Assembly (NCBI GenBank): GCA_000004695.1
Contig: CM000153.2
Coordinates: 1,120,001-1,184,000, forward strand
Source: Dictyostelium discoideum
Taxonomy: Eukaryota
Direction: 5' to 3'
Length of the DNA: 64,000 bases
Shown: positions 58,221-59,642 of the stretch, one piece after another
Layout of the letters: each line of letters starts with the position of its first letter
Position numbering within the stretch: the first letter of the stretch is position 1
The notes under the pieces: generated by a model
What the model saw: the letters and a program-made list of their open reading frames with translations, nothing else
Databases searched by the model: none
What the model was told of the DNA's origin: nothing
Translations under genes and position numbers: made by a program

Positions 58221-59642
58221 CTATTGATCATAGACAAATTTCTCGAAACTATCATCTTCATCAATTGATGTTACAACTTCCCATTCATCTTCTTTTGCAC
58301 AATCATCATACTCACCAGACATTGGTGATCCAACCTCTAAATATTGTTGATCCCTAAATAATAATAATAATAATAATAATAATAATAATAATAATAATAA
58401 TAATAATAATAATAATAATAATAATAATAATAATAATAATAATAATAATAATAATAATGAAAGATGATTAATATATGTATATTTTAAAAATTATCAGTGT
58501 TTTTTTGTTTTTTTTTTTTTTCCAACTTACTTTCCTAAATTATTTGATTTAATTAATTCATAAATATTCTTTAAAAATAATAAATTCGATTCTTTTGGTG
58601 TTTGAATACCATGATAATATCTAAGAAATATTATATTTTCGCCCAATAAATGTAATGCCTTTTGAAATTCTCTTGATTTTGTTTTCTGTTGGTAATATAG
58701 TGGATAATCTTTAGATTTCATATTATGATGTATTGTTGATTTTGACCCTTTTGATAATAAATGATAAGGTAGCGTTATACCTAAAATACCTGATATTAAT
58801 ACAACTATTTTACTTATATATCCTAATGTTGTAAATATAACATCTTTTGGGAATTCTGTTTTGAAAATTATAATAAAAATGTATTAGTCATTTGTACATT
58901 ATATATATATATACACTTTTTTTTATAAATTAACATACTTAATAATTGTTGATCATTTAAAACCATATTAAATAAAAAAAAGTGATCAGGAGTTGTTGGA
59001 TTAAGTTGAAGTCTAGTCATTGAATTTGTTAGTTGTTCAATTTTTGAACGTTTTACAATTTGTAATGATGTATTTTCTGCTGTTAATTGATCTTTTTTCT
59101 TTTGAATTTCATCAGTTAGAGATGAAAATCCACTCTTTGAATTATTTACAGCTTCAAATGAAATTTTATTCTTTTTTAATGATGACCTTCTTGTGCTTAA
59201 ATATTTCTTTTTAACATCAATTAATCCATTATCTATTTTAAATAAATAAATTTAATTATTTCATCACAATGATTTGTTAATATTATTTATTATTGGTGGG
59301 GAAAAAAAAAAAAAAAAACTAAATGACATATGTCTTACCTTTTATTACAGTCGTTTTTAATGTTTGTATTTTATTTTTTAAAATTTCAATTTGAATTTTC
59401 TTACTCTCTAAATAAGTTTTTTTTATATCGATTTGTTCTTGTAATTGATTTTTTGGTTGTGAAATTGATTCAAGTATTTTATTTTTTGCAATTAAATTGG
59501 CTTTCTTTTTGTCAAATATGGATTGTATTAATTCGAATACTCTACTTTGATCATTTTTAATTCTCTGTAAACATGGTTCACAATAACTTTCTTGAAAATT
59601 AAACCTATTATTACATGAACAACAATTGAAAAAGAAATTCAT
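58221..59642 (-). CDS. Cys4 + coiled-coil + hydrophobic-hairpin protein with acidic C-terminal W-x-x-V (LIR-like) tail, 4 exons (59339..59642, 58939..59232, 58531..58855, 58221..58353)
   Basis: Exon 1 MNFFFNCCSCNNRFNFQESYCEPCLQ plus coiled coil. Exon 2 is coiled coil. Exon 3 has a hydrophobic segment IFTTLGYISKIVVLISGILGITLPYHLL. Exon 4 ends ...DQQYLEVGSPMSGEYDDCAKEDEWEVVTSIDEDDSFEKFVYDQ*. Donors are GTAAGA, GTATGT, GTAAGT and all phases fit. An (AAT)n block lies in intron 3. Confidence 0.6.

Follow-up and report, generated by a model that had tools for sequence, protein, structure and literature searches.

A probable Dictyostelium discoideum Atg14 orthologue with a conserved LIR-type motif in its C-terminal tail

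Introduction

In complex I of the human class III phosphatidylinositol 3-kinase (PI3KC3), two pairs of ATG14 cysteines (C43/C46 and C55/C58) form intermolecular zinc fingers with cysteines of BECN1 (PMC13542195). Human ATG14 also has a major LC3-interacting region (LIR), TDWENLP (W435-L438), which was established by peptide arrays, pulldowns with W435A/L438A, micromolar affinities, and a crystal structure with GABARAPL1 (PMC6613885). In a study from 2026, this LIR, termed the "C site," was placed inside a flexible region that extends from residue 402 of ATG14 to its C-terminus. Among the GABARAP sites of complex I it has the highest affinity, and the GABARAP-driven activation of phosphatidylinositol 3-phosphate (PtdIns3P) synthesis involves its cooperation with an N-terminal site (PMC13542195). 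Atg14 is also among the recognised autophagy homologues of Dictyostelium (PMC6598861; PMC8442847). Here, we examine the Dictyostelium discoideum gene atg14 (DDB_G0283825), which lies at 58221..59642 on the minus strand of a stretch of 64,000 nucleotides (positions 1,120,001 to 1,184,000 of contig CM000153.2, assembly GCA_000004695.1; hereafter, the window). We conclude, with a probability of roughly 0.9, that its product is the Atg14 orthologue, the autophagy-specific subunit of PI3KC3 complex I.

This gene was already known. It is catalogued as a core autophagy gene, UniProt names its product Atg14, and the family, the cysteine repeats, and the LIR of ATG14 are all established, so we have nothing new to report on its identity. 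A preliminary description of the locus had proposed either a selective-autophagy receptor with a membrane hairpin or an Atg14-like factor, and had pointed to a C-terminal motif of the LIR type. We found no paper on the evolutionary conservation of the ATG14 LIR and no text that specifically describes a LIR for Dictyostelium Atg14 or how widely it is conserved; a literature text search for DDB_G0283825 gave no match.

Gene model and deposited protein

On the minus strand, joining 59642-59339, 59232-58939, 58855-58531, and 58353-58221 gives a single open frame of 1056 nt, which encodes 351 amino acids and a TAG stop (58223-58221). Exon 1 (59339..59642) begins with the ATG at 59642 and encodes residues 1-101 plus 1 nt. 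Exon 2 (58939..59232) has 294 nt, exon 3 (58531..58855) has 325 nt, and exon 4 (58221..58353) encodes residues 308-351 and the stop codon. The introns, of 106 nt (59233..59338), 83 nt (58856..58938), and 177 nt (58354..58530), all run from GT to AG. Such short introns are usual for a dictyostelid genome, as is the base composition of the window (about 20% G+C). With slashes for the exon boundaries, the flanks are AAAAG/GTAAGA...ATAG/ATAATG for intron 1, TTAA/GTATGT...ACAG/AATTCC for intron 2, and GAAA/GTAAGT...TTAG/GGATCA for intron 3.

A shift of one base at any of these junctions loses the frame. Because of this, and because every intron has GT..AG ends, the start, the end, and the three junctions of the preliminary description (59339/59232, 58939/58855, and 58531/58353) are exact. 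All three junctions also fall inside blocks that are conserved in the D. purpureum orthologue, as seen in an alignment of dictyostelid proteins. The product, which had been put at about 350 residues, is 100% identical over its whole length to the deposited D. discoideum protein (EAL65527.1 / XP_638896.1), which NCBI calls "hypothetical" and UniProt calls "Autophagy-related protein 14." The coding region as a whole thus rests on the spliced translation, the protein identity, and the Pfam match described below. Orthologues with 36-73% identity are present in D. purpureum, Polysphondylium, Heterostelium, Cavenderia, Acytostelium, and Tieghemostelium.

Two of the deposited orthologues have gene models that look mis-spliced when compared with the family. 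The Heterostelium album model (PPL_07985, P0005 in our set) has a 19-residue N-terminal extension and a 14-residue insertion after the cysteine repeats, and its BARA-like domain is without the final two helices. In the Cavenderia fasciculata model (DFA_08371, P0006), most of the coiled coil is absent and about 90 residues of low complexity are inserted in the domain.

Two simple repeats accompany the D. discoideum gene. A perfect (AAT)34 microsatellite (58357-58458; (ATT)34 on the coding strand) fills 102 of the 177 nt of intron 3 and ends 3 nt from the AG of the 3' splice site, which is curiously close to the acceptor. It is likely to be polymorphic in length. About 60 nt past the stop codon, in the 3' untranslated or intergenic region, there is also a perfect (TTG)9.7 repeat (58135-58163; (CAA)n when read on the atg14 strand).

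Family membership and fold

The protein matches Pfam family PF10186 ("Vacuolar sorting 38 and autophagy-related subunit 14"; ATG14/Vps38/UVRAG) with 196.8 bits (E = 7e-58; the cutoff is 33.2 bits). The match spans residues 7-303 and profile positions 1-346 of 347.

We also built an AlphaFold model from an alignment of 39 sequences (pLDDT, the predicted local distance difference test score, of 87). An earlier run with 6 sequences had a pLDDT of 61 and its C-terminal domain was unusable. From the N-terminus onward, the model has a knuckle region, helices at 22-61, 63-131, and 137-174, an alpha/beta domain at 175-305, disorder at 314-338, and a helix at 343-349. The three long helices make up the predicted coiled coil (residues 22-174; 59015..59579, including intron 1), most of which has a pLDDT above 90 and which aligns to the coiled coils of UVRAG and ATG14; the roughly 150 residues of coiled coil in the preliminary description are therefore borne out. 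The alpha/beta domain (residues 175-305; 58539..59014, including intron 2) has a pLDDT of 93-97 and is identified as BARA-like by structural comparison.

When the model was compared to the PDB with Foldseek, there were nine matches at E <= 0.001, and these were human UVRAG, human ATG14, and Beclin 1 chains. The top match is human UVRAG in complex II (9zpd_C, E = 3.2e-11), and the human ATG14 chains of complex I (9mhf_C, 9mhh_C, 9mhg_C, and 8sor_C) have E values of about 1e-6 to 4e-6. Just under this set are the BARA domain of Vps30/Atg6 (3vp7; root-mean-square deviation of 3.8 A over 130 columns), more Beclin 1 entries, and chains of yeast complex II; the rest is noise. Since the matches are limited to chains of the PI3KC3 adaptor arm, the protein is an adaptor-arm subunit of this kinase.

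The cysteines ahead of the coiled coil identify the protein more closely. The preliminary description had noticed a cluster of the form C-C-x-C...C-x-x-C. C7-C8-S9-C10 and C21-E22-P23-C24 are indeed present, and the orthologues conserve C7, C10, C21, and C24, or two CxxC motifs with 10 residues between them, but C8 is not conserved. This pair of motifs (59571..59624), a hallmark of Atg14, is conserved in the dictyostelids and in 24 relatives with the same architecture. By analogy with human ATG14, it may form zinc knuckles with Atg6/Beclin. Together with the full-length PF10186 match, the fold matches to the adaptor arm, and the UniProt name, the CxxC pair upholds the earlier suggestion of an Atg14-like factor.

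Human ATG14 (ATG14L/Barkor) has the same order of elements: two CxxC motifs directly before a long coiled coil, then a BARA-like domain. There are also differences. The Dictyostelium protein does not have the 40-residue N-terminal leader of human ATG14, and its tail has 46 residues instead of about 90.

Atg14 or UVRAG/Vps38

PF10186 also includes UVRAG and yeast Vps38, the corresponding subunits of complex II. The Dictyostelium protein might thus be a Vps38/UVRAG-type subunit of endosomal complex II, or it might be the sole dictyostelid member of the family and serve both complexes. With UVRAG it shares the coiled coil and the BARA2 domain, including an LGY...L.LRY..GSRSTI...PLY core, and UVRAG chains rank above ATG14 chains in the Foldseek results. 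We consider this alternative very improbable, for the reasons that follow.

Word-indexed homologue searches returned dictyostelids only, and an exhaustive HMMER search returned 673 family members. We compared the architectures of the best 150 of these 673 matches (about 51 bits or more) and found two types. Atg14-type proteins are short and have CxxC-x(9-11)-CxxC directly ahead of the coiled coil. UVRAG-type proteins (such as a Lottia "C2 domain-containing protein") have 600-800 residues, an N-terminal extension of 120-190 residues, and no cysteine repeats. Among the matches listed, the nearest non-dictyostelid relatives are all Atg14-type, and N-terminal CxxC repeats were found in 0 of 35 UVRAG-type matches, while the Dictyostelium protein has both repeats. 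We found no C2 domain in it (Pfam, E up to 1), and only 6 residues precede its first cysteine. More broadly, UVRAG-type proteins are characterized by an N-terminal extension of about 150 residues that contains the C2 domain, the absence of the CxxC pair, long unrelated tails, and no enrichment of the acidic LIR, and the Dictyostelium protein has none of these features. It instead resembles the Atg14s of other Amoebozoa (Tieghemostelium, Ceratiomyxa, Acanthamoeba, Balamuthia, Protostelium, and Copromyxa) in its length class, CxxC pair, domain order, and C-terminal acidic LIR.

To compare the shared region by itself, with the cysteine repeats and the tail removed, we set a hidden Markov model (HMM) of 24 Atg14-type sequences against an HMM of 35 UVRAG-type sequences. 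The scores were 233 and 166 bits, respectively, a preference of about 68 bits for the Atg14 type, although the Atg14-type HMM is rich in Amoebozoa and this advantage may partly reflect taxonomic proximity. A neighbor-joining tree from BLOSUM62 distances places the UVRAG type in one clade that leaves out the dictyostelids; outside of this clade the tree is star-like, with equal mean distances to both classes, so we relied on it solely for the monophyly of the UVRAG type.

Besides the composition of the HMM and the shape of the tree, three other observations weigh against Atg14. First, a dictyostelid profile scores human UVRAG at 69 bits and human ATG14 at just 27.7 bits. Human ATG14 lacks about 16 residues over the GSxSxI...PL beta-hairpin segment; Atg14-type relatives generally keep the segment, as judged by the 39-sequence consensus, and in the Dictyostelium protein it is retained as GSKSTI...PLY. 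We infer that human UVRAG outscores human ATG14 because vertebrate ATG14 lost this segment. Vertebrate ATG14 would then be a divergent member of the Atg14 class, and this divergence would explain why amoebozoan Atg14s are sometimes automatically named "UVRAG." Second, there is no N-rich or clearly dictyostelid second family member among the best 150 matches, even though metazoan UVRAGs reach 50-84 bits; the missing paralogue was judged by composition and a few names only, which makes this weak evidence. Third, the 46-residue tail has no amphipathic helix like that of BATS or the amphipathic lipid packing sensor (ALPS). Because this feature is not universal to Atg14, its absence does not exclude membership in the class.

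The closest Acanthamoeba homologue might also seem to favor UVRAG, as its source calls it a "UV radiation resistance associated protein," but this protein is itself Atg14-type. A longer member of the same cluster (P0163, 351 residues) has CTLC...CCASC ahead of the coiled coil and GDWEFI at its very end. The 317-residue deposited model (A. castellanii XP_004341570.1, P0019) appears to be an N-terminally truncated Atg14, and its deposited name is probably wrong.

Overall, the CxxC pair, the lack of a C2 extension, and the preference of the shared region for the Atg14-type HMM lead us to assign the protein to Atg14 rather than to UVRAG/Vps38. The acidic LIR tail described below is likewise specific to the Atg14 class. 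We rejected identity as UVRAG/Vps38 because of the architecture, the scores of the two competing HMMs, and the position outside the UVRAG clade.

The hydrophobic segment

The preliminary description reported a hydrophobic segment of 28 residues and took it for a membrane hairpin. The stretch is real: from V205 to Y230, the Kyte-Doolittle average over 19 residues reaches a maximum of 1.97. If it were a hairpin in the bilayer, then the protein could be a membrane-anchored receptor for selective autophagy (such as ER-phagy, the autophagy of the endoplasmic reticulum) that recruits Atg8 through the canonical acidic W-x-x-V motif in its tail. However, no block of this soluble family is better conserved than the segment (residues 203-230, KDVIFTTLGYISKIVVLISGILGITLPY; 58764..58847). 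L210, G211, Y212, L224, G225, L228, and P229 are invariant among dictyostelids, and for G211, L224, L228, and P229 the conservation is 90% or more across 39 diverse sequences. It aligns to residues 349-378 of human UVRAG and to residues 299-330 of human ATG14, that is, to the sequence of chains in cryo-electron microscopy entries. AlphaFold places residues 203-224 (pLDDT of about 96) in one helix, followed by beta strands, that packs against a beta-sheet inside the BARA-like domain, which superposes on the BARA domain of Vps30. We therefore view the segment, on the basis of this model, as a buried core helix of a soluble protein that would associate with membranes peripherally.

Without a hairpin, the receptor interpretation fails as well. 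The fold of the whole model matches only UVRAG, ATG14, and Beclin chains, and the Pfam scan gave no match to reticulon or other receptor families. What the protein shares with ER-phagy receptors of the FAM134/reticulon-homology type is limited to a hydrophobic stretch and a C-terminal acidic LIR-type motif; it has no reticulon-homology or transmembrane hairpin and no kinship to them in sequence or fold. The conservation, the alignment to soluble homologues, the confident model, and the fold matches rule out a receptor with a membrane hairpin, and we consider this possibility to be effectively refuted.

A LIR-type motif in the tail

Past the BARA-like domain, the protein ends in a disordered acidic tail (residues 306-351; 58224..58538, including intron 3), with a pLDDT below 50 at residues 314-338. 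The C-terminus reads ...KEDEWEVVTSIDEDDSFEKFVYDQ, and the W-E-V-V core of the motif is encoded at 58283-58272. The full motif, EDEWEVV (E329-D-E-W332-E-V-V335; 58272..58292), is contained in the final sequence of the protein, ...YDDCAKEDEWEVVTSIDEDDSFEKFVYDQ. As the preliminary description had recognized, this fits the LIR consensus of an acidic residue followed by W-x-x-V.

Two kinds of evidence indicate that the motif is more than a chance occurrence. First, W332 and E333 are invariant in the dictyostelid alignment even though the surrounding linker is variable and rich in indels, and every dictyostelid species in the alignment has W-E-[V/F/I/L]-[V/I] with acidic residues upstream. Second, we searched the tails downstream of the folded domain for a strict pattern (an acidic pair, an aromatic residue, any residue, and two aliphatic residues) and computed the expectation from shuffled tails. 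The pattern is present in 12 of 23 Atg14-type tails, as compared to 0.9 expected (about 13-fold enrichment), and in 2 of 34 UVRAG-type tails, as compared to 1.9 expected. Among the carriers are Ceratiomyxa, Acanthamoeba, Balamuthia, Copromyxa, Protostelium, Planoprotostelium, the chytrid Gaertneriomyces, and the deep-branching Ancoracysta. Separately, seven UVRAG-type proteins (P0024, P0044, P0057, P0060, P0064, P0070, and P0078) have a conserved DDxFF[K/R/Q][I/L/V] about 100 residues past the BARA-like domain, which is distinct from the Atg14 LIR.

The motif also corresponds in position to the verified LIR of human ATG14 (PMC6613885). Both proteins have a disordered tail with an acidic W-E-x-[L/V] (TDWENLP in human, EDEWEVV in Dictyostelium). 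The idea of a LIR is thus well founded, as a feature of Atg14 rather than of a cargo receptor, and by analogy with the human protein we lean toward the view that the Dictyostelium motif binds Atg8.

FIR (FIP200-interacting region) and LIR consensus sequences overlap, and short linear motifs that combine acidic and hydrophobic residues are promiscuous. The protein could therefore be Atg14 and its tail motif could have another role: as a FIR-type motif that binds the claw of Atg11/FIP200, as a site of intramolecular or Atg6 BARA contact, or as a regulatory phospho-acidic patch. The motif is also followed by another conserved element, FE[KR]xxFxD, which suggests a larger binding module. However, the motif fits the strongest class of LIR (acidic residues followed by W at position 0 and V/I/L at +3), it lies in a disordered tail, and its position is equivalent to that of the proven human LIR, WENL, which has the same W-E start. 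We consider a role of this other kind to be unlikely, and we prefer Atg8 as the partner.

The element after the motif

In many amoebozoan Atg14s, the LIR is followed by a PxP stretch and a conserved ED[L/I]xxFERAMFID (tails P0017, P0018, P0023, P0026, P0032, and P0068). The D. discoideum counterpart of the FERAMFID element is EDDSFEKFVYDQ, immediately past the LIR. The PxP linker was deleted in D. discoideum and its close relatives, which leaves just 7 residues between the LIR and the terminal helix. This terminal short helix (S343-FEKFVYDQ-351; 58224..58250) was delimited by the tail alignment and is predicted, with low confidence, as a helix at 343-349. SFEKFVYDQ is the only helix of the strongly acidic tail, which has no ALPS-like stretch. 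Human ATG14, in contrast, has the BATS/ALPS helix, of which the Dictyostelium tail has no recognizable equivalent, just the short acidic FEKFVYD element past the LIR. It is possible that this element corresponds to the BATS helix of metazoans.

Neighboring genes

A gene for a mitochondrial ribosomal protein of the MRP-L47 family (57277-57982, plus strand; PF06984, 64.5 bits) converges on atg14. It consists of two open reading frames, probably two exons, and its 3' end is about 240 nt from the atg14 stop codon. On the other side, a divergent gene (60565-63282, plus strand) encodes 905 residues in a single open reading frame and shares a 922-nt AT-rich upstream region with atg14. The N-terminus of its product is rich in cysteine, and it is followed by low-complexity sequence rich in serine, a PBD/CRIB domain (PF00786, 30.2 bits), and a long coiled coil. 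A WH2-like motif scores below the cutoff (18.7 bits), and the end is acidic (...EEVAWDD). These features suggest a VCA tail like that of the WASP family, carried on an unusual coiled-coil scaffold.

Discussion

We propose that Dictyostelium Atg14 would turn the core of the class III PI 3-kinase (Vps34-Vps15-Atg6/Beclin) into autophagy-specific complex I. If the arrangement is like that of the human and yeast complexes, then the two CxxC motifs would complete zinc knuckles with the CxxC motifs of Atg6, the coiled coil would pair in parallel with the coiled coil of Atg6 to form the adaptor arm, and the BARA-like domain would pack next to the BARA domain of Atg6, at the tip that faces the membrane. 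From there, by homology, the flexible tail would reach lipidated Atg8 on the phagophore and dock W332 and V335 in its two hydrophobic pockets. Docking could recruit, retain, or activate complex I at the Atg8-decorated phagophore, which would give a positive feedback from PtdIns3P to Atg8 and back to complex I.

A more far-reaching proposal, which we make tentatively and which we regard as doubtful, is that the tail is an ancient bipartite targeting module (an Atg8-binding LIR and an FE[R/K]xxFxD helix) that is older than the metazoan BATS, and that in dictyostelids, where no ALPS helix is seen, Atg8 binding by W332 and V335 is the main means by which complex I is held and activated at the phagophore.

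What our analysis adds is comparative and modest: the LIR has counterparts across Amoebozoa, in a chytrid, and in Ancoracysta, and it is absent from the UVRAG paralogue class. This distribution suggests that the feedback from Atg8 to the PI 3-kinase is old. If the tail is indeed bipartite in this way, then the feedback loop between GABARAP and PI3KC3 complex I that was described in human cells in 2026 would be an ancestral eukaryotic trait, and one that could be tested by Dictyostelium genetics.

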